A DNA stretch of 30,206 nucleotides from a bacterium (lineage in GTDB: Bacteria; Hydrothermota; Tepidihabitantia; Tepidihabitantales; Tepidihabitantaceae): assembly GCA_046485285.1 (NCBI GenBank), contig JAWOHE010000082.1, positions 1 to 30,206 of the forward strand, written 5' to 3'. Under the pieces are notes generated by a model that had not been told where the DNA came from, did no database searches, and worked only from the letters and a program-made list of their open reading frames with translations. Numbering within the stretch: the stretch's first letter is position 1; each line of letters begins with the position of its first letter. Shown here piece by piece: positions 4,893-13,169 of this stretch. The translations under genes were made by a program, and so were the position numbers.

Positions 4893-4994
4893 ATCGTGAT
4901 GAACACGCGCGAAGAACTTGCCCGGGCGTTCAGCGAGCTCGAGAGCGGTAGTTTCCTGAGCCACGGCCGCGCGCCGGCCGGTCCGCGGCCCTAG
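4887..4994 (+). pseudogene. 3' stub of a pirin-family gene
   Basis: Manual translation GPIVMNTREELARAFSELESGSFLSHGRAPAGPRP*. GP(I/F)VMNTxEE is the conserved pirin C-terminal motif. Confidence 0.75.
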
Positions 4995-5782
4995 GGTCGA
5001 AAGTACAGGTCGGTTCGGCGGTCGTCGAGGAGGTGGTTGCGGCGGGTGACCTGCTTGTCGAGCGCCTCGGCCGGGTCGATGTCCACGACCCGCAGTTCTT
5101 CGGTCTCCGCCCCGGCCCGGACGAGGACCCGGCCGCCGGGGGCGACTACCTGGCTCTCGCCGATGAAGCTGAGTTCCTTGTCGCCGGCGCGTTCGGTGCC
5201 GGTCCGGTTGGCAAGTACCCAGAAGACGCGATTTTCGATGCACCGGCAGGCGGTGGTGGCGTGGGCGTAGCGGAGGACGAGGTTGGAGGGGTGGCAGATG
5301 ACCTGCGCGCCTTTGAGCGCGAGCGCGCGCGCGGCCTCGGGGTAGAAGTGGTCGAAGCAGACCAAGAGGCCGAGTTTGACCCCCCGGTACTCGAAGACCG
5401 GGAAGGGCAGGTCGCCGGGCGAGAACAGGTCTTTTTCGTCGAGGAACAGGTGGGCCTTGCGGTAGGTGTGGCAGTCGCCTTCGGGCGTGACGAGCACCGC
5501 GGAGTTGTAGAGCCGGTCGCCCGCGCGCTCGGCGAGCCCGACGACGACCGCGAGCCCGCGGCGGCGGCAGAGCCGGGTCAGCGTCCGGCAGGTCGGGCCG
5601 TCCGGGATGGGTTCGGCGCAGGCGGCGAGCCCGGACCGGGATTCGAACAGGTAGCCGCTGACGGCGAGTTCGGGCAGGACGATGAGGTCGGCCTCGGCGT
5701 TCTCGAGCGCGGCTTCGATCCGGCCGAGGTTGCGGTCGCGGTCGCCCCGGTCCGGCGCGAACTGGAAGTAGCCGACGCGCAT
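4991..5782 (-). CDS. Carbon-nitrogen hydrolase (nitrilase superfamily)
   Basis: Catalytic triad contexts VLPEL, YRKAHL and VCFD. Likely start MRVGYFQF at 5782, directly after the YitT stop. Confidence 0.9.
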   Translation of the reverse strand: MRVGYFQFAPDRGDRDRNLGRIEAALENAEADLIVLPELAVSGYLFESRSGLAACAEPIPDGPTCRTLTRLCRRRGLAVVVGLAERAGDRLYNSAVLVTPEGDCHTYRKAHLFLDEKDLFSPGDLPFPVFEYRGVKLGLLVCFDHFYPEAARALALKGAQVICHPSNLVLRYAHATTACRCIENRVFWVLANRTGTERAGDKELSFIGESQVVAPGGRVLVRAGAETEELRVVDIDPAEALDKQVTRRNHLLDDRRTDLYFRP

Positions 5783-5783
5783 C

Positions 5784-6629
5784 TCAGGTCCGGGGACGGA
5801 AGCCCTCGCCGAGGACCTCGTAGACGTCGGTGATGATGACGAAGGCCGCGGGGTCGAGCTCACGCACGAGCTCCCGGGCGCGGAGGACCTCGCGCTTGCT
5901 CATCACGGTGAAGATGACCTGGCGCGGCCGGCCGGTGTGGCCACCGTGGGCGTCGAGCAGGGTGACGCCCCGGTTCATCGTGCCGGTGATCCGGGCGGAG
6001 ATGGCCGGGGCGGCGTCGGAGATGATGAACATCGCCCGGGTGTAGCTCAGGCCTTCGAGGACGAGGTCGATGGCGCGGCTCTGGAGGTAGAGGTTGAGGA
6101 AGCCGTAGAGCGCGAGTTCGAAGCTGCCGAAGGCGAGCCCGGCGCCGGAGATGACGACCGCGTCGACGAGCAGGATGGCGCTGCCGGTCGAGAGGTCGGA
6201 GTGGGTGGCGATGACCTGACCGATGATGTCCGAGCCGCCGGTCGAGCCGCCGCCCCGGAAGACCAGGCCCAGCCCGGCGCCGAGCAGGAGACCGCCGAAG
6301 ACGCAGGCGAGGATGGGGTTGGTGGTGGCGGGTCCGACCGGCAGGGCGTAGTGAACCAGGTCGATTACCCCGGAGGAAACCACGATGCCGAGCACCGATT
6401 TGAGGCCGTAGGTCTTCCCCAGCACCCGGACGCCGATGATGAAGAGCGGGACATTCAGGACCAGGATGACCAGCCCGACCGGGGTATGGAAGAAGTGGTT
6501 GAGGACCATCGCCAGACCGCCGACGCCGCCCGGGACGATCTTGTGGGGGATGAGGAAGAGCGAGTACGCCAGCGCCATCACCACCGAGCCGGCGAAGATG
6601 AGCAGGAGGCTGCCGATGAGGCCGCGCAT
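5784..6629 (-). CDS. YitT-family membrane protein (DUF161 + DUF2179)
   Basis: PGGVGGL, LNVPLF, GGSTGGSDII, RGVT and DPAAFVIITDVYEVLGEGF motifs; multiple hydrophobic helices. Confidence 0.9.
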   Translation of the reverse strand: MRGLIGSLLLIFAGSVVMALAYSLFLIPHKIVPGGVGGLAMVLNHFFHTPVGLVILVLNVPLFIIGVRVLGKTYGLKSVLGIVVSSGVIDLVHYALPVGPATTNPILACVFGGLLLGAGLGLVFRGGGSTGGSDIIGQVIATHSDLSTGSAILLVDAVVISGAGLAFGSFELALYGFLNLYLQSRAIDLVLEGLSYTRAMFIISDAAPAISARITGTMNRGVTLLDAHGGHTGRPRQVIFTVMSKREVLRARELVRELDPAAFVIITDVYEVLGEGFRPRT

Positions 6630-6647
6630 ACGGGCTGGCACAGTCCC

Positions 6648-6676
6648 AGTGTAGCGACATGCGCCCGCCAAGTCAA
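6648..6676 (-). promoter_or_regulatory. Sigma70-type promoter for yitT
   Basis: Minus strand TTGACT-N17-TACACT, about 20 nt before ATG 6629. Confidence 0.6.
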
Positions 6677-6818
6677 TCTACCGCGACATCATCGCCCTAA
6701 GTACATTGTTGGTGGCAATATATCTTGCCTGTCGCAGTTGACCGGGTTGGTGTCGCACTTCGGGGTTGACTTGAACCGGCCGACCGATATAATGCGGCGT
6801 GGCAGAGCGTTTGTCGCA
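6654..6818. promoter_or_regulatory. Cluster of TGTCGC(A) motifs; putative operator half-sites
   Basis: TGTCGCA at 6730, 6751 and 6812; GCGACA at 6654 and 6683. The same motif recurs at 12142-12249. Confidence 0.55.
6766..6793 (+). promoter_or_regulatory. Sigma70-type promoter for the large regulator
   Basis: TTGACT-N16-TATAAT, with a GGAG RBS before ATG 6869. Confidence 0.7.
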
Positions 6819-6868
6819 CCGTCCGGGTCGCGCCCGGGCCGGGCGCGACGGGCCCGGCAGGAGCCGTA

Positions 6869-9800
6869 ATGCGTGAGCCACCCGGAATCGTGATGTCCGC
6901 CTCGCTGCCGGAGGGTTCGCTCGTATCCGACCGGTACGAGGTGATTTCCCTGCTTGGCGGCGGCACCGCGACCGAGGTCTACGAGGTGCGCGACATCATC
7001 GGGAACCGGACTCTCGCGATGAAGATGCTGAGGGAGGACGCCGATAAGGAGGCCGAGGTCCGTTTGTCGCGGGAGTTCTACCATTTGTCGCGGTTCTCCC
7101 ACGCGGGCATCATCCAGGCCATCGACTACGGGACGACACATGAGCACCGGCCGTATTTCGTGATGGAGTTTTTCCCGGGCAAGCCGCTTAATCGCCACTT
7201 CGCCAAGGGCTATGCGCCGGAGCTTGAGTCAGTTACGGTCCAGGTGCTCCGGGCGCTGGACAGCATTCACGCCCAGGGCCTGATTCACTGCGACTTGAAG
7301 CCGGAGAACGTCCTTGTCGCAGAGCTCGACGGCGAGCCGGTGGCCAAACTGCTCGATTTCGGCTTCGCTGAGCGGCTGACAATCGGCGAGGCGATTGAGC
7401 CGCGCGGCACACTGGGATATGTCGCACCTGAGGTGTTCAAGGGAGCGGATGCCGACGCCCGCGCGGACCTGTACTCGCTCGGGATGATTCTCTACGAGGT
7501 CGTCACCGGTACCGGCCCGTCGTCCGAGAAGAGCATCCGCGACTGGCTGAGGCGGCAGTACTTCTCCGAACTGCCGTCGCCGCGCAAGGCGAATCCCGAC
7601 ATCCCGGAGCGTTTCGAGGCGGTCCTGCTGTCACTGACCCACAAGAACCCGGACCGGCGGCCCCGTTCCGCCGCCGCGGTCATCCGCGCCCTGAACGGGT
7701 CGGAGGAGAGCCCTGAGCAGGCCGGGCCCCGCAAGTACCTGATGGCGCCGGCTTTCGTCGGCCGGGGCGAGTACCTGAGCGGGTTGCGGGACGCGCTGCG
7801 CGACGGCGCGCAGAGCCGGGCAAGGGTGGTCTGCGTGTCGGGCGAGCGGGGAGTGGGCAAGAGCCGGTTGATGTCGGAGTTCAAGTTCCTCGCCCAGCTC
7901 GAGGGCGCGACGATCTTCTCTTTCGAGCCCGGGTCGCTGGGCGCCCGGCCGCAGTCGCTGGTCGAGGCGCTCCTGGGATACCTCCGGGTCTACGCCCGGG
8001 CCGACCTGCCGAGTGACGACGAGGCGGAACGGGCCTCGGCCACCGGCGAGGGCAAGTACCGGCTGTTCGAGACGGTGACCCAGCGGCTGAAGGACCTGGC
8101 CGGGTCGCACCGCGTCAGCCACAGCCTGGTCATCATCGTCGACGACTTCGAGCTGTTCGACCCGACGAGCCTCGAGTTCCTGCGTTACCTCGGGTTCAGT
8201 CTCGACAAGGACCGCATCACCATCCTGGTCTGCGGGCTGAAGGAGCGCCGGTTCCTTGACCTCATCGCCGAGTTCGGCCGCACCGGGCACTCGGCGCACA
8301 TCTCACTGCCGACGATGACCGGCGAGGAGACCGCCGGGCTGGCGGCGTCGCTGTTGGGCGAGGTCAACGACTCGCCGGCGCTGGCGAAGTGGCTGGTCCA
8401 GGCGACCGGCGGCAACCCGCTGTTCGCGATCGAGACCGTCCACGCGCTGATCGACGGCCGGGTGCTCTTGTTCCGCAACGGCCGCTGGGTGCTGGAGCTC
8501 TCCTCGCTCGACGCCTACCGGCCGCCCGAGACGGTGACCGACGTGGTCCAGCGCCGGCTCGACAACCTGACCGCCGAGGAGCTCGAGGTGCTGAGAATCG
8601 GCGCGGCGTCGGGCGGGCCGTTCACGATCGAGTTTCTGCGGGCGGTGGTCGGCATCGACGAGCGGGTGCTGTTCAACGCCATCGGCCGGCTCAAGGCGCT
8701 TGGTCTCCTGCGGACTTTCGCGGCCGAGGGTGGCGCGGCGCTGGTGCTGTCGAGCAAGATCCTCGAGGCGGTCATCACCGGGCGGCTGAGCGTCGAGGAG
8801 CGGCGCGAGAATCACCGCCGGGTCGCGCTGGCCCTGGAGCTGCTCTACCCGGAGAAGCAGGACAAGCTGGTCTTCGACCTCGCCCACCACTACGCCCAGG
8901 CCGGAATCGCCGACCGCGCCTATGCCTGTTCGGTCCGGGCCGGCCGGCGCGCGCGCGACTACCAGCTTTCCGAGCAGGCGCTCGGGTTCTTCGAGACCGC
9001 GCTCGCGCTCTCCGCCGGGACGGCGCCGGTGCGGGAGCGGCTCGAGCTCATCGAGACGGTCGGCGAACTGCGCGAGGCGACCGGCAAGTACGCCGAGGCG
9101 ATAGACATCTACACCCAGGGGATGAGCCTGGTCGTCTCGGACCGCGAACTGCCAAGCCGCAAGGACCTGCTCGCCCGGCTCCTGCGCCGGCTCGGGCTGG
9201 TCCACCAGCGGCTCGGGCAGTCGGCCGAGGCGCTGAACTTCTTCAACCAGGCGCTGCTGATGCACCCGGACCGGGCATCGGTGGGCTACATCCAGTTGCT
9301 CGACGACCTCGGCTGGTCGTACTGCGCGGCGCAGGAGTTCAACCGGGCCGAGGACCTGCTGACCCAGGCGCTGCATCTCGCCGACCGGCTCAAGCCGACC
9401 GACGCGGAGGCCTACAACCGGATGTCGGCCCGCACGCTCTACTACTTCGGCGTGATGAGCTGGACGCGGCAGGACCACGTGCTGGCGCTCCAGCTCGCCG
9501 AGCGCAGTCTTGGCATCTACGAGAGCATCCGCGACGACCACAACGTCGGCAAGGTCAGCCAGTTCATCGCGACGCTGTGGTGGCGGCGGGGCGAGCTCGA
9601 CAAGGCCAAGGACTACTACCTGAAGTACCTGCCGGCCCAGCGCAAGGGCGCGGAGGTCTCGCTCCTGCTCCGGACGCTCCAGGGACTCGGGCTTATCAGC
9701 CAGGACGAGGGCGAGTGGGACCGGGCCTATGACTACCTTGACGAGGCGTTGAGAATCGCCCAGCGCATCGGCGACGCGCCGGCGACGATCGACCTCGAGA

Positions 9801-12127
9801 GCGGCATCGGCTCGGTCTGCGACGAGCGCGGCGAGTGGGACGAGGCGCTCCGGCACTTCGGCCGCGCCGACGAGGTGCTGGCCGCGTCGGGCCAGGGCGG
9901 AGGGTATGAGAAGGCGGTGGTTCGCGCCAACCGGGCGCGCATCCTGGGCCGGCGGGGCCTCATCGACGAGGCCGAGCAGGAGCTCGCCGGTGCGCTGGAA
10001 CAGGCGGAGCAGCTTGCCGACGCCAACCTCGGGTTCTTCGTCCTGCTCTACCAGGCCGAGCTCGCGCTGCTCGCCGAGCGAAACGACACCGCCCGCCAGC
10101 GGATCATCCGCGCCGGGCGCGAGTTCCGGCGCGAGCGCGACTGGCGCCAGCGTGCCGCCTTCCGCGATGTCGCCAGCCAGTTCCGGCTGGCGCATGGCGA
10201 TTTCGCTCGCGCGCTCGCCGACGCGACCCGGGCGCTCGCCTACCTGAAGGACAAGTCGGCGGCGAAGGAACAGGCCCAGGCACTGCGCAACTCCGGGCTT
10301 GCCCGCTACGCCCTCGACCGGCACGAGCGGGGCGCGGCCGAGATCAAGCGCAGCATCGAACTGCTGAAGGCGTCCGGCTCGACCTACGAGCTCGGCCGGT
10401 CGCTCTACGCGTCGGCGCGGGCGCTGGCCCGGCAGACCCCGGGCGAGCGGACGGTCGACTTCCGCATGCCGGTTTCCTTCCGGCCGGTTCCGCCCCACGT
10501 CCTGACCGAGGCGCTGGCGAACCTGAAGCAGGCCGAGGAGGTATTCCGGCGGCTGGGCGCGCGCATTGACCTCGCGCGCACCGAGGAACTCGCCGAGGCG
10601 CTCACCCAGGTGTCGGCGACGATGCAGCTCAAGGCACGCGAGCGGGGCGAGTACCTCAAGGTCTTCTACCGGCTGAGCGAGCTGATGAGCCTGGGCCTCG
10701 ACAAGGAGGACTTCGCCGAGCGGGTGCTCGACCTCGTCATCGAGGTCACCCGGGCCGAGCGCGGAGTGCTCTTCCTGGCGCACGGCAGCAAGCTGGTGCC
10801 GGCCGCCGCCCGCAGCGTCGACCAGGCGACGGTCGAGGACGCGAAGGACGTGTCCCAGTCGGTACTGCGCAAGGTCAGACGCCGGGGCGAGCTGGTCTTC
10901 TCGGCCGACGCGATGTCCGACCCGAGGTTCTCGGCCGCCAACAGCGTGATGCTGAACCGAATCCGGTCGATGCTCTGCGCGCCGCTCCGCACCGAGAACA
11001 AGGTCATCGGGACGATCTACCTCGACAGCCGGGTGACCGCCCACCTGTTCCTCGAGGAGGACAAGAACCTGCTGATGTCGGTGGCCAACCTGCTCGGCGC
11101 GACGATCGACAGGTCGCAGAGTTTCCAGCGGCTGCAGGAGGAGATGTCGACGCAGCGCGAGGATGTCCCGGTCGATGATGCAACCGGGTTCTTCATTGGC
11201 CGGTCCCGGGCGATGCGCGAAGTCTATCAGGTCGTCGACCAGATCGCCGAGACCGACTGCACCGTCCTGCTCACCGGTGAGACCGGCACGGGCAAGGGCG
11301 TGATCGCCCAATTGATTCACGCCCGGAGCGAGCGCCGAGGCAGGGCCCTCGTGACAATCAACTGCGGGGCGCTGCCCGAGCCGTTGCTCGAGAGCGAGCT
11401 CTTCGGGCACGTCCGGGGCGCGTTCACCGGCGCGGTCCGCGACAAGACCGGGCTTTTCGAGACCGCGGAGGGGGGGACCGCGTTTCTTGACGAGATCACC
11501 AACACGACGCTGAACACCCAGGGCAAGCTGCTCCAGGTGCTCGAGGAGAAGACGATCCGCCGGCTCGGAGACACCGAGACCAAGCGTGTCGACATCCGGC
11601 TCATCTGCGCGACCAACGTCGACCTGCGAAAGGAGGTCGAGGCCGGCAGGTTCCGGCAGGACCTTTTCTACCGGATGAACGTCGTGTCAATCGAGGTTCC
11701 GCCCCTGCGCGACCGGACCGGGGACGTGCCGCAGCTCGCCGGGTTCTTCGTCAAGCGCTGCGCTCGCCAGTTGAACAAACCGGTCATCGGCTTCGAACCG
11801 CCGGTTCTCAGGGCGTTTTCGACCTATCGCTGGCCGGGCAATGTCAGGGAGATGGCCAACGTCATCGAGCGTGCAGCAATAATGACCCAGAAGCGTCGCA
11901 TCACGCTTGAAGACCTCGGTGCCGCCTTTGCCAACCTCAGGGCAGAGCAGGAAGAAGTGGGCACGCGGCGGCGCAGGGGGAGGGCGGTTGATCGCGAGGC
12001 GATCATCAAGGCCCTCCGCGCCCACGATGGCAATGTCACCCGCGCAGCAGATTCCCTGGCAACGCATCGCCGTCAACTTCAAAGACTTATCCAACGGTAC
12101 GCCATAGACCGCTCTGACCTGAGCTAG
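6869..12127 (+). CDS. Multidomain sigma54-dependent activator: Ser/Thr kinase + STAND/AAA_16 ATPase + TPR + GAF + sigma54 AAA+ + Fis-type HTH
   Basis: Kinase: AMK, IHCDLKPEN, DFG, YVAPE, DLYSLG. ATPase: FVGR, GERGVGKS, IVDD, TGGNPLF. Long TPR-like helical region. GAF: AERG...DPRF...SMLCAPL...IGTIYLD. bEBP: GETGTGK, GAFTGA, FLDEI, DLFYRMN, WPGNVRE. HTH: GNVTRAADSL. Confidence 0.92.
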   Translation: MREPPGIVMSASLPEGSLVSDRYEVISLLGGGTATEVYEVRDIIGNRTLAMKMLREDADKEAEVRLSREFYHLSRFSHAGIIQAIDYGTTHEHRPYFVMEFFPGKPLNRHFAKGYAPELESVTVQVLRALDSIHAQGLIHCDLKPENVLVAELDGEPVAKLLDFGFAERLTIGEAIEPRGTLGYVAPEVFKGADADARADLYSLGMILYEVVTGTGPSSEKSIRDWLRRQYFSELPSPRKANPDIPERFEAVLLSLTHKNPDRRPRSAAAVIRALNGSEESPEQAGPRKYLMAPAFVGRGEYLSGLRDALRDGAQSRARVVCVSGERGVGKSRLMSEFKFLAQLEGATIFSFEPGSLGARPQSLVEALLGYLRVYARADLPSDDEAERASATGEGKYRLFETVTQRLKDLAGSHRVSHSLVIIVDDFELFDPTSLEFLRYLGFSLDKDRITILVCGLKERRFLDLIAEFGRTGHSAHISLPTMTGEETAGLAASLLGEVNDSPALAKWLVQATGGNPLFAIETVHALIDGRVLLFRNGRWVLELSSLDAYRPPETVTDVVQRRLDNLTAEELEVLRIGAASGGPFTIEFLRAVVGIDERVLFNAIGRLKALGLLRTFAAEGGAALVLSSKILEAVITGRLSVEERRENHRRVALALELLYPEKQDKLVFDLAHHYAQAGIADRAYACSVRAGRRARDYQLSEQALGFFETALALSAGTAPVRERLELIETVGELREATGKYAEAIDIYTQGMSLVVSDRELPSRKDLLARLLRRLGLVHQRLGQSAEALNFFNQALLMHPDRASVGYIQLLDDLGWSYCAAQEFNRAEDLLTQALHLADRLKPTDAEAYNRMSARTLYYFGVMSWTRQDHVLALQLAERSLGIYESIRDDHNVGKVSQFIATLWWRRGELDKAKDYYLKYLPAQRKGAEVSLLLRTLQGLGLISQDEGEWDRAYDYLDEALRIAQRIGDAPATIDLESGIGSVCDERGEWDEALRHFGRADEVLAASGQGGGYEKAVVRANRARILGRRGLIDEAEQELAGALEQAEQLADANLGFFVLLYQAELALLAERNDTARQRIIRAGREFRRERDWRQRAAFRDVASQFRLAHGDFARALADATRALAYLKDKSAAKEQAQALRNSGLARYALDRHERGAAEIKRSIELLKASGSTYELGRSLYASARALARQTPGERTVDFRMPVSFRPVPPHVLTEALANLKQAEEVFRRLGARIDLARTEELAEALTQVSATMQLKARERGEYLKVFYRLSELMSLGLDKEDFAERVLDLVIEVTRAERGVLFLAHGSKLVPAAARSVDQATVEDAKDVSQSVLRKVRRRGELVFSADAMSDPRFSAANSVMLNRIRSMLCAPLRTENKVIGTIYLDSRVTAHLFLEEDKNLLMSVANLLGATIDRSQSFQRLQEEMSTQREDVPVDDATGFFIGRSRAMREVYQVVDQIAETDCTVLLTGETGTGKGVIAQLIHARSERRGRALVTINCGALPEPLLESELFGHVRGAFTGAVRDKTGLFETAEGGTAFLDEITNTTLNTQGKLLQVLEEKTIRRLGDTETKRVDIRLICATNVDLRKEVEAGRFRQDLFYRMNVVSIEVPPLRDRTGDVPQLAGFFVKRCARQLNKPVIGFEPPVLRAFSTYRWPGNVREMANVIERAAIMTQKRRITLEDLGAAFANLRAEQEEVGTRRRRGRAVDREAIIKALRAHDGNVTRAADSLATHRRQLQRLIQRYAIDRSDLS

Positions 12128-12141
12128 TGCGTCAGCTTGGC

Positions 12142-12249
12142 GCGACACTCAGGTAGCTGAACTGACAAGAAATGAGTAACTTAGCACAACTAGTGCCTAG
12201 TGTCGCAGTAAGGCACGCCATATCGTCAGAAGTGTCGCACCATGCGACA
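12142..12249. promoter_or_regulatory. Putative upstream activator sequences (enhancer) for the sigma54 promoter
   Basis: GCGACA at 12142, TGTCGCA at 12201 and a perfect inverted repeat TGTCGCA-cca-TGCGACA at 12233-12249, followed by an AT-rich tract. Confidence 0.65.
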
Positions 12250-12295
12250 TTGAGATATGTGTTTGATAAAATGCGAGTTATGTTTTTCAGGCGAA

Positions 12296-12311
12296 TGGCA
12301 TTGCCTGTGCA
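12296..12311 (+). promoter_or_regulatory. Sigma54 (-24/-12) promoter
   Basis: TGGCATTGCCTGTGCA: GG(12297-98)-N10-GC(12309-10). It lies directly downstream of a bEBP gene and about 60 nt before a start with a strong RBS. Confidence 0.75.
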
Positions 12312-12370
12312 TATATACTAGAGGCGTTTGAAGTGCGCTCGTGGCTCTGGTGCCACAGGAGGAGTCCCTT

Positions 12371-12574
12371 ATGAGAAGAACTGCGATGGCCTTGCTCTTC
12401 GTGCTGTTCGCCGCCGTGTCGTTTGCCCAGGAGGATGGCGGTATACCGTTGCCGCCGCGGCCGCTGCCGATACCGGACCCGAGCGGGGTGGTGCTCCTGG
12501 CGGACGGTACGGCTGACCCTGACGGCATACCGTTGCCGCCGCGGCCGCTACCGATACCGGACCCGAGGGGCTAG
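12371..12574 (+). CDS. 67-aa secreted peptide precursor with two identical Pro-rich cores
   Basis: RBS AGGAGGAG. MRRTAMALLFVLFAAVSFA-QEDG is a Sec-type signal peptide. GIPLPPRPLPIPDP occurs twice (12440-12481, 12524-12565). Confidence 0.8.
   Translation: MRRTAMALLFVLFAAVSFAQEDGGIPLPPRPLPIPDPSGVVLLADGTADPDGIPLPPRPLPIPDPRG
12440..12565 (+). repeat. Two 42-nt direct repeats with an 84-nt period
   Basis: The copies differ only at two synonymous third positions (GGT/GGC, CTG/CTA). Confidence 0.9.
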
Positions 12575-12678
12575 CAGCCTTCGGGGACGGCAGCGGATAG
12601 CGCCTTCGTGCATTGCCCGGCCGGCAGGGTCGGCGTGGTGTTTCTCTCGGCCGCAGCAGAGCCGCGCCCGGGCATTCG

Positions 12679-12706
12679 TTGACTGTCCCGAACCCACTCG
12701 TATAAT
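12679..12706 (+). promoter_or_regulatory. Sigma70-type promoter for smpB, probably leaderless
   Basis: TTGACT-N16-TATAAT, 7 nt before GTG 12714. Confidence 0.7.
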
Positions 12707-12713
12707 CGAGGGC

Positions 12714-13169
12714 GTGACTGCCGTCGCGACCAACCGCAAGGCCTTCCGGGACTACGAGGTTATCGAGAAGCTCGAGGCGGGCATAGAGCTGGCCGGCACC
12801 GAGGTCAAGTCCCTACGCGGCGGCAACGTCTCGCTTGACGAGGGCTTCGCCCGGGTCGAAGACGATCAGGTCTGGCTCTACGGAGTCCACATCGCGCCCT
12901 ACGCCCAGGGCAATATCTTCAACCGCGACCCGCGCCGCCGGCGCAAGCTGTTGCTGCACAAGCTGGAGATTCGCCGGCTGTTCGGCCGGGCGACCATCCG
13001 CGGGCTCACGCTCGTGCCGCTCCGGCTCTACTTCAACAAGCGCGGGTATGCCAAGGTCGAACTGGCGCTGTGCCGGGGCAAGAAGCTCCACGACCGGCGC
13101 GAGGATCTCCGCAAGCGCGCGCTCGAGCGCGACGAGCGGCTCGAGACGTCGCGCAGGCAGGCGAGGTGA
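12714..13169 (+). CDS. smpB: SsrA-binding protein SmpB
   Basis: ATNRKAFRDY, EAGIELAGTEVKSLR, RKLLLHKLEI, LTLVPLRLYF, GKKLHDRR. Confidence 0.97.
   Translation: MTAVATNRKAFRDYEVIEKLEAGIELAGTEVKSLRGGNVSLDEGFARVEDDQVWLYGVHIAPYAQGNIFNRDPRRRRKLLLHKLEIRRLFGRATIRGLTLVPLRLYFNKRGYAKVELALCRGKKLHDRREDLRKRALERDERLETSRRQAR

Follow-up and report, generated by a model that had tools for sequence, protein, structure and literature searches.

The micropeptide gene

We analyzed a 30,206-nt stretch of bacterial DNA (hereafter the window), which is positions 1–30,206 of contig JAWOHE010000082.1 of assembly GCA_046485285.1. The window is GC-rich chromosomal DNA. At 12371–12574 it carries a small gene for a proline-rich micropeptide precursor, located 3′ of a gene for a 1,752-aa enhancer-binding protein (EBP), here called the activator. 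Comparison of related loci firmly points to a conserved micropeptide gene that appears to be controlled by sigma-54 and an enhancer-binding activator and that is paired with this one giant activator across candidate division WOR-3. The features of the gene are as follows.

12371–12574, plus strand: micropeptide precursor open reading frame (ORF), ATG start, 67 aa, TAG stop.
12358–12364, plus strand: Shine-Dalgarno sequence GGAGGAG, 6 nt before the ATG; GGAG is invariant in 20/20 loci.
12371–12427, plus strand: predicted Sec/signal peptidase I (SPase I) signal peptide, residues 1–19, MRRTAMALLFVLFAAVSFA/Q, assigned by rule.
12440–12481, plus strand: core 1, GIPLPPRPLPIPDP, residues 24–37, with QEDG ahead, from repeat and codon comparison.
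12482–12523, plus strand: spacer SGVVLLADGTADPD, a hydrophobic patch and then ADG; relatives keep the hydrophobic run and [A/V]DG.
12524–12565, plus strand: core 2, GIPLPPRPLPIPDP, residues 52–65, followed by RG and the stop codon, from repeat and codon comparison.

The 67-aa product of the ORF is MRRTAMALLFVLFAAVSFAQEDGGIPLPPRPLPIPDPSGVVLLADGTADPDGIPLPPRPLPIPDPRG, and its layout is MRRTAMALLFVLFAAVSFA/QEDG-GIPLPPRPLPIPDP-SGVVLLADGTADPD-GIPLPPRPLPIPDP-RG. Signal peptides were assigned by rule, using n-, h- and c-regions, a hydropathy scan and small residues at -3 and -1. The window peptide has a basic n-region (MRR), a hydrophobic h-region whose Kyte-Doolittle 13-residue mean peaks at 2.67, and small residues at the expected positions (S at -3 and A at -1, with Q at +1), as expected for Sec and SPase I. 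No lipobox was found by inspection and the hydropathy scan. Judged by these features, the window precursor is very probably exported by Sec.

A 51-nt direct repeat underlies the cores (12436–12486 and 12520–12570, 92% identical, spacing 84 in the repeat search). The two cores are identical at the protein level and differ at 2 of 42 nt (GGT>GGC and CTG>CTA); both differences are synonymous. An earlier reading of this DNA from its letters alone (the sequence-only reading) had described a strong ribosome-binding site, a VSFA/QE cleavage site, twin 14-aa cores, their flanks and the spacer, all of which were confirmed on re-reading.

The GC content at third codon positions (GC3) is 0.79 in the ORF frame, 0.64 in the antisense frame and 0.74 in the +2 frame, and it is 0.87–0.92 in confident genes of the window. 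An antisense ORF of 100 aa and the +2 frame were both ruled out by GC3 and the conservation pattern. All four isoleucine codons of the ORF are ATA, which accounts for 4% of isoleucine codons in the reference genes. Other rare codons are AGA (two), TTG (three) and CTA. The ATA-CCG pair at the core start is also present in the related loci L003, L006 and L021.

Pairing of the peptide gene with the activator gene

Genomes were scanned with the activator protein, which gave 77 loci. There were 24 WOR-3-type orthologues, 21 of them full length at 47–76% identity and 3 cut by contig ends. The other 53 loci were unrelated and matched only the sigma-54 or kinase domain of other regulators. Nineteen orthologous loci with DNA 3′ of the activator gene were usable; L001, L004, L011, L014 and L034 had no such DNA. 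A small proline-rich ORF was present 3′ of the activator gene in 20/20 loci (the 19 usable loci and the window), and the proline motif was found beside the match in none of the 53 unrelated activator or kinase loci. The gap between activator and peptide genes is 211–1021 nt, and 211–247 nt in 17 of the 20. Every orthologous locus with a named taxon came from candidate division WOR-3 (Caldifarciminota at NCBI).

The genes downstream of the peptide gene in the window are smpB (12714–13169), an amidase gene, murI, rph and an rluD-like gene. In L014, L015 and L023, the smpB-amidase-rluD block is on the opposite side of the activator gene. The peptide gene keeps its position 3′ of the activator gene in L015 and L023; the downstream DNA of L014 is missing. 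Since the block swaps sides while the peptide gene stays, the stable pair is the activator gene and the peptide gene.

Selection on the peptide

Differences between the cores within one gene were counted as follows.

Window cores: 2 synonymous, 0 nonsynonymous.
L002 cores: 4 synonymous, 0 nonsynonymous.
L003 cores: 5 synonymous, 0 nonsynonymous.
L021 cores: 7 synonymous, 0 nonsynonymous.

The four genes together have 18 synonymous and 0 nonsynonymous differences. About 0.3 of random changes in the cores would be synonymous, and 0.3^18 is approximately 4e-10. The two synonymous differences in the window had earlier been taken as a hint of selection on the peptide, and the differences in L002, L003 and L021 bear this out. 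The cores of L020, the most divergent member, have a few nonsynonymous differences. In 15 short ORFs of a second form, described below, seven columns are conserved (Met, Ile and five Pro), with variation in 0, 0 and 6 cases at codon positions 1, 2 and 3, respectively. The sequence-only reading had named frameshifts and a lack of codon-level conservation in homologous loci as evidence against its view, and what was found is homologues at orthologous sites with third-position-only variation. The codon comparison strongly supports a real, translated gene under selection at the peptide level.

Two forms of the peptide

A leaderless form was found at 15 loci as single-core ORFs of 16–21 aa, for which no signal peptide is possible. 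Their consensus is MDxGxPILPxPxPxxPPx, and examples are MDGIPIPPRPGPLGPP, MDGIPILPRPRPVIPPPR, MDGGVPIPPTPGPIQPKPPVA and MDGWVPILPPPLPAPPPVE. The frame upstream of these ORFs is closed or hydrophilic. Most of the phylum appears to produce the peptide directly in this short form. The leaderless peptides are 30–44% proline, with PPP, PPxP, APP, PRP and PxP strings. A signal-peptide form with 2–4 cores was found at 5 loci (the window, L002, L003, L020 and L021), and protein searches gave five more proteins of this type (P0004, P0008, P0009, P0010 and P0011). The n-h-c layout, small residues at -3/-1 and Q at +1 are present in 10/10 members of the signal-peptide type. ORF size among the relatives ranges from 16 to 127 aa.

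Core copy number across relatives, a comparison suggested by the sequence-only reading, does vary: there are two cores in the window, P0004 and P0008–P0011, three in L002 and L021, and four in L020. The spacers of signal-peptide-type members contain LILVD, LILAD, LMLAD, MMAD or VLLAD. In P0011, the spacer sequence LLA-QEDGG matches the signal-peptide junction of the same protein, LGA-QEDGG. The earlier suggestion that VLLA-D in the window spacer echoes the cleavage site gains support from these spacers, especially that of P0011. The P0011 sequence suggests that the duplicated unit began inside the c-region of the signal peptide, and its spacer junction may be a processing site. Taken together, the alignments strongly support, as the conserved functional unit, a polyproline-type peptide of about 14–18 residues with the pattern x-D-G-(I/V/F)-P-I-(P/L)-P-x-P-x-P.

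L005 (11440–11605) has two tandem tiny ORFs of 20 and 19 aa behind one sigma-54 promoter. Both have their own AAACGGAGG ribosome-binding site and a TTG start. Here the increase in dosage came from duplicating the gene and not from adding cores within it.

An exhaustive representative search gave two true relatives, P0004 (70 aa, E 1.7e-7) and P0008 (66 aa, E 2.7e-4), and a profile search added P0009–P0011. The profile E-values of P0004 and P0008 are circular, both proteins being inside the profile. A word-index protein search with the window peptide returned only its own protein. Five long repetitive proteins, P0002, P0003 and P0005–P0007, were rejected on inspection of their composition as repeat or low-complexity matches. 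No family for the peptide was found in Pfam or NCBIfam, and a 'Sex_peptide' match of P0008 at 0.081 was treated as noise. In Rfam (E up to 1, 11900–13000), no match was found for the peptide unit; an archaeal snoRNA-type match with E 0.32, on the other strand inside smpB, was rejected. In ESM Atlas, the best feature score was 0.75, which is under the lead level.

Origin of the signal-peptide multi-core form

A maximum-likelihood tree was built quickly from 20 activator proteins, with the careful search left unfinished; L017, L018, L021, L004 and L034 are outside the tree. The window, L002, L003 and L020, together with L001 (which has no downstream DNA), form one clade with SH-like approximate likelihood ratio test (SH-aLRT) support of 100. 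This clade is nested among leaderless lineages, and therefore the signal-peptide multi-core form appears derived. The tree strongly supports the leaderless 16–21-aa peptide as the ancestral form, with a signal peptide added and the core multiplied 2–4 times in the window clade.

The predicted N-termini after SPase I cleavage are QDG, QEDGG and QQEDGG, and the leaderless peptides start with M-D-G. These N-termini are alike, which places x-D-G-(I/V)-P at or near the predicted free N-terminus in both forms.

Promoter and enhancer-like sites

The regulatory features around the peptide and activator genes are as follows.

12296–12311, plus strand: sigma-54 (-24/-12) promoter TGGCATtgcctGTGCA, from a pattern match; GG at 12297–12298 and GC at 12309–12310.
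12140–12249, plus strand: enhancer-like region (upstream activating sequence, UAS) with GCGCGACA at 12140–12147, TGTCGCA at 12201–12207 and the palindrome TGTCGCAccaTGCGACA at 12233–12249.
6730–6818, plus strand: three TGTCGCA words, putative autoregulatory sites, around the sigma-70-like promoter of the activator gene (TTGACT-16-TATAAT, 6766–6793).
12617–12645, plus strand: weak terminator-like hairpin CCGGCCGGCAGGGTCGG (12617–12634) with a T-rich tail.

The pattern TGGCAYN5KTGCW has one match in 30.2 kb, against 0.08 expected, and this match is located before the peptide gene. A GG-N10-GC element is present 32–62 nt ahead of the start codon in 20/20 loci. This relaxed pattern was fitted after viewing the data, and its background in the same loci is 0.045 per 200 nt. 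In an alignment of the 20 intergenic regions, mean column identity is 41%. Invariant or nearly so in this alignment are the -24 GG, the -12 GC, GGAG, the start codon and, roughly 92 nt before the promoter, a GCGACA block.

TGTCGCA-type repeats precede the promoter in 20/20 loci. Relative to the promoter, the same alignment has conserved GTCGCAC, GTGCGACA and TGCGACA blocks near -160, -92 and -55, respectively, and GTCGC/GCGAC half-sites recur near -160 and -55. The perfect palindrome TGTCGCAccaTGCGACA has its sole match within the window here, and the region also has an AT-rich stretch. TGTCGCA occurs 11 times in the window, compared with 3.98 expected, and 6 of the 11 fall in the two intergenic regions on either side of the activator gene. 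In 17/20 loci, the 250 nt upstream of the activator gene contain TGTCGCA/TGCGACA words, against a background of 0.09 per 250 nt. At the activator promoter, there are two or three such words, often about 20 nt apart, at about -67 and -47 from the start. These positions fit an activator that recognises the heptamer, autoregulates and drives the peptide promoter. Given the TGTCGCA repeats and the -24/-12 promoter, the peptide gene should depend for its transcription on sigma-54 together with an enhancer-binding activator, and the neighbour is the simplest candidate. The expected parts of a sigma-54 unit are all present: a -24/-12 promoter, upstream enhancer-like sites and an activator with a GAFTGA loop, Walker A/B motifs and a helix-turn-helix (HTH). 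The rpoN gene is absent from the 30-kb window.

By eye, clearer terminators made of a hairpin and a T-run are present 3′ of the peptide ORF in most related loci, and with these terminators the unit appears monocistronic. The 3′ region of the window gene folds no more stably than shuffled sequences (z = 1.29). In L009 (7921–8880), L008 and L012, the enhancer/promoter block is intact and is set off from the activator stop codon by inserts of about 800, 200 and 340 nt, respectively.

The activator and its TPR region

6869–12127, plus strand: 1,752-aa activator (EBP), from Pfam and NCBIfam domains.

The domain order of the activator is Pkinase, AAA_16 (STAND-type), about 14 tetratricopeptide repeat (TPR)-like repeats, GAF, Sigma54_activat AAA+, AAA_lid_14 and HTH_8. 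The C-terminal part is NifA/NorR/NtrC-like by NCBIfam, and TIGR03903 (TOMM kinase/cyclase fusion) matched below its cut-off. In 20 aligned orthologues, kinase residues K52, D142 and D163 (Lys, HxD and DFG), both Walker A motifs and F1519-T1520-G1521-A1522 of the GAFTGA loop are invariant. From this alignment, the activator looks functional in all 20. In L018 (6001–11348), the activator frame breaks near 9483, by a frameshift or an assembly error; tblastn matches reach the normal end, and the peptide gene downstream is intact.

No membrane-like segment was found in the activator (maximum Kyte-Doolittle 19-residue mean 1.32, compared with 2.44 for the YitT control). Residues 640–1265 were modelled as 29 helices making about 14 TPR-like repeats (pLDDT 89.3, pTM 0.83). 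This region has weak sequence matches to the solved structures of TTC29, LGN/GPSM2, RapF (E 6e-4) and kinesin light chain (KLC1). Peptide-binding TPRs (LGN/Pins complexes, KLC1 and RapF) are among its nearest solved relatives. Foldseek with the model pointed to no specific receptor family; its matches were generic TPR solenoids, among them LGN/Pins-peptide complexes and OGT. The model is consistent with a scaffold of the kind that commonly binds extended peptides, and with nothing more specific.

Proposed function

We propose that the activator drives the adjacent peptide unit through the TGTCGCA sites and the -24/-12 promoter. The 67-aa product would be exported, and SPase I would cut after SFA to leave the N-terminus Q-E-D-G-G-I-P, like the M-D-G-I-P of leaderless forms. 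The resulting 48-aa product would then probably be cut in the hydrophobic-ADG spacer to give two equal peptides. In the most speculative step, the peptide would bind the TPR sensor of the STAND module and feed back on its own activator. The outcome would be autoinduction or a feedback loop, with RRNPP-like logic on a sigma-54 chassis. The sequence-only reading had mentioned a TPR-groove ligand; with a TPR solenoid of about 14 repeats encoded directly upstream, this idea can be put as a concrete hypothesis.

We favour this proposal as a whole (an EBP-controlled, exported multi-core precursor acting as a signal or feedback on its own activator), although we rate it somewhat short of an even chance. 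Its decisive part, that the peptide is the signal or feedback ligand of the TPR sensor, draws on analogy and is put forward tentatively, as a minority possibility. The broadest version, a new peptide-signalling class outside Bacillota in which a polyproline peptide is the autoinducer or feedback ligand of the giant WOR-3 activator and one lineage has a Sec-exported multi-copy pheromone precursor, is doubtful.

Several observations weigh against the proposal. Fifteen loci have leaderless forms with no export signal, and the activator has no membrane segment. With leaderless peptides and a cytoplasmic activator, feedback could be purely intracellular, and Sec export in the window clade is then hard to explain. 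If an outer membrane is present, a peptide of 1.5–2 kDa would have to cross it by some route. In the conserved neighbourhood (CN-hydrolase, YitT, smpB, amidase, murI, rph and rluD), no gene for an exporter, an importer or a processing protease was found. The TPR region resembles peptide binders in a generic way (TMq 0.61 or less). The terminator of the window gene is weak, and its ORF uses rare codons, such as ATA at each isoleucine. Finally, a 138-nt segment of L010 (11436–11573), spanning the 5′ untranslated region (UTR), a 16-codon ORF and the 3′ UTR to the terminator, is 100% identical in L022, a different species, with clearly diverged activator genes, enhancer regions and flanks. This identity could be due to constraint on the RNA, gene conversion or recent transfer.

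Alternative explanations

The peptide could be a pure output of the activator, that is, an effector that is switched on but not sensed, such as a periplasmic or extracellular ligand of the polyproline-helix kind, a peptide for adhesion or the matrix, or one that modulates an envelope protein. This explanation, unlikely when taken singly, is nearly as likely as a feedback ligand. It draws on the same regulatory anatomy. Export and extra copies in the window clade suit a stoichiometric effector, there is no importer nearby, and cell-wall genes (amidase and murI) follow in most loci. However, the 15 leaderless loci have no export signal, the link with cell-wall genes is broken in L015 and L023, and no candidate target was found. 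The invariant pairing with a TPR sensor is left unexplained by a pure output, though it is not contradicted.

Improbable, but better placed than the remaining alternatives, is a dual-function small RNA, in which a sigma-54 transcript of about 150–300 nt is regulatory, as in the LuxO-Qrr and GlrR-GlmY layouts, and the peptide is secondary or minor. The compact monocistronic unit of promoter, short ORF and terminator beside an activator gene suits such an RNA, as does the identity of L010 and L022 over both UTRs with differing flanks. However, codon-level selection is plain, and the ribosome-binding site and start codon are invariant. The UTRs are unconserved across the family, Rfam gave no match, the 3′ region in the window folds no better than shuffles, and L010/L022 is a single pair that may reflect recent transfer.

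The sequence-only reading had compared the product to a precursor of peptides that are made on the ribosome and modified after translation (RiPPs). Identical repeated cores, variable spacers and variable copy number agree with a multicore precursor of RiPP type that relies on modifying enzymes encoded at other genomic sites. RiPP status is nevertheless very improbable and gained no support. The same reading had seen no modifying enzyme adjacent, which holds more widely: across the 30-kb window and the conserved neighbourhood, no RiPP enzyme family was found. Cys, Ser and Thr are not conserved in the cores, and the 16–21-aa forms lack a leader that an enzyme could recognise.

A polyproline translation sensor, in which a stalling leader peptide would report on EF-P or prolyl-tRNA status and control smpB, would account for the PPP, PPxP and APP strings and for the presence of this ribosome-rescue gene downstream in many loci. 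We consider it highly improbable. The smpB gene has its own near-consensus sigma-70 promoter, a terminator-like site lies between the genes, and smpB is not downstream in L007, L010, L015–L019 and L023. A signal peptide and multiplied cores make no sense in a stalling leader, and a dedicated 1,750-aa activator would be odd.

The likeness to proline-rich antimicrobial peptides (PrAMPs) noted in the sequence-only reading did not hold up. A length of 16–21 aa, 30–44% proline and the PRP and PxP strings are shared with a peptide aimed at competitors, but known PrAMPs are strongly cationic and Arg/Pro-rich. Net charge is 0 for the window core, -4 for its mature part and -2 to +2 for the relatives, and no immunity or export genes are nearby. 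This role also has very little probability.

A chance ORF or repeat in GC-rich intergenic DNA, where long shadow ORFs are common and with which the lower GC3 (0.79 against 0.87–0.92 in neighbours) and rare codons agree, is effectively refuted by the comparative data: the ORF is kept at 20/20 orthologous sites with variation confined to third positions, its ribosome-binding site and start codon are invariant, and it has a dedicated promoter.

Comparison with known systems

In the RRNPP systems (Rap-Phr, PlcR-PapR, NprR-NprX, AimR-AimP and Rgg-SHP), as here, a small propeptide gene adjoins the gene of a cytoplasmic TPR regulator. The superfamily includes both Sec-type propeptides and propeptides of about 20 aa with no Sec signal. 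According to PMC10075063, the RRNPP signature is a propeptide of 10–100 aa, adjacent genes and a receptor of 250–500 aa with peptide-binding TPRs. The points compare as follows.

Propeptide size: within the signature for the window (67 aa); relatives are 16–127 aa.
Gene adjacency: present in 20/20 loci.
Receptor: 250–500 aa with TPR and HTH or phosphatase only in RRNPP; here 1,752 aa with Pkinase, AAA_16, GAF and Sigma54_activat, which differs.
Peptide binding: RRNPP receptor TPRs bind the peptide; here TPRs are present, and structural matches are generic solenoids.
Secretion: by Sec (or PptAB) in RRNPP, with maturation outside the cell, re-import and receptor binding; here a signal peptide by rule in 10/10 signal-peptide members and no export signal in 15 leaderless loci.
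Taxonomic range: Bacillota and their mobile elements in RRNPP; here WOR-3, which differs.

By analogy, the layout would agree with four of the five signature points as quoted from PMC10075063, TPR peptide binding and secretion being only predicted here. Unlike in RRNPP, the peptide here is polyproline-like and multi-core.

Sigma-54 activator genes with an adjacent small sigma-54-dependent non-coding RNA are known in LuxO-Qrr1 and GlrR-GlmY. The shared features are a short monocistronic -24/-12 unit, enhancer sites, a position beside the activator gene and probably a private target. The products of those systems are non-coding, whereas here there is codon-level selection with an invariant ribosome-binding site and start codon. 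By analogy, the logic resembles RRNPP and LuxO-Qrr cassettes, and the parts and the phylum appear new.

In PspF-PspA and HrpS-HrpV, a regulon product (a cytoplasmic protein of 70–220 aa) binds the AAA+ domain of its own sigma-54 activator. Possible feedback of a regulon product on the activator is shared. Unlike PspA and HrpV, the product here is a proline-rich peptide of 14–21 aa, predicted to be exported in the window clade, and a TPR sensor is available.

Multi-copy peptide precursors include yeast alpha-factor, cyanobactin and plant or sponge multicore precursors. They share with the signal-peptide form a signal peptide, 2–4 identical cores, spacers and a copy number that varies between relatives. 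Here, in contrast, there is no known protease or modifying enzyme, and the precursor is bacterial, sigma-54-controlled and derived from a single-core leaderless gene.

In regulators of the STAND/LAL type (MalT-like and PknK-like), a ligand at the repeat sensor drives oligomerisation. The order of kinase, AAA_16 and TPR is shared with the activator, but its output consists of GAF, sigma-54 AAA+ and HTH_8. We know of no peptide ligand for the MalT-like or PknK-like families. In the open-access and bioRxiv literature searched, no description of the peptide family or of the activator-peptide pairing was found.

Genes of 16–21 codons escape standard annotation, and here one is kept across a candidate phylum with its own sigma-54 promoter. 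The peptide is the likely main local output of a 1,750-aa multi-sensor regulator. The pairing gives a ligand-receptor hypothesis, peptide against TPR sensor, that is testable in vitro or in E. coli, a host with sigma-54, with no need for cultivation. The family also appears to record a rare transition in which a single-core micropeptide with no leader became a multi-core precursor with a signal peptide. If feedback is true, RRNPP-like peptide-receptor cassettes would extend to a new phylum and to sigma-54 control, and the exported multi-copy form would be a bacterial counterpart of the yeast alpha-factor precursor.

Neighbouring genes

A sigma-70 promoter precedes smpB (TTGACT-16-TATAAT, 12679–12706, 11 of 12 consensus positions). 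Its -10 box ends 6–7 nt before the GTG/ATG, and smpB thus looks leaderless or nearly so. By eye, the arrangement of promoter and start is the same in L002, L005, L006, L008, L009 and L020.

A divergent nitrilase-like CN-hydrolase gene (4991–5863, minus strand) lies upstream of the activator gene and is found there in 18 loci. A YitT-family membrane protein gene is at 5784–6671 (minus strand). YitT was rejected as an obligate partner; YitT-region matches are missing from L007, L014–L019 and L023. In L016, L018 and L019, the space between the CN-hydrolase and activator genes has no YitT-region match.

Shadow ORFs are numerous across the GC-rich window, and the 'unknown' ORFs at 5860–6660 (minus strand) and 5937–6869 (plus strand) are shadow frames of the YitT gene. 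A 186-aa ORF, P0012 (29316–29876, minus strand), has no Pfam match, and its C-terminal half is repetitive and rich in Tyr, Arg and Pro (RSPYR, YPYR and GYG).

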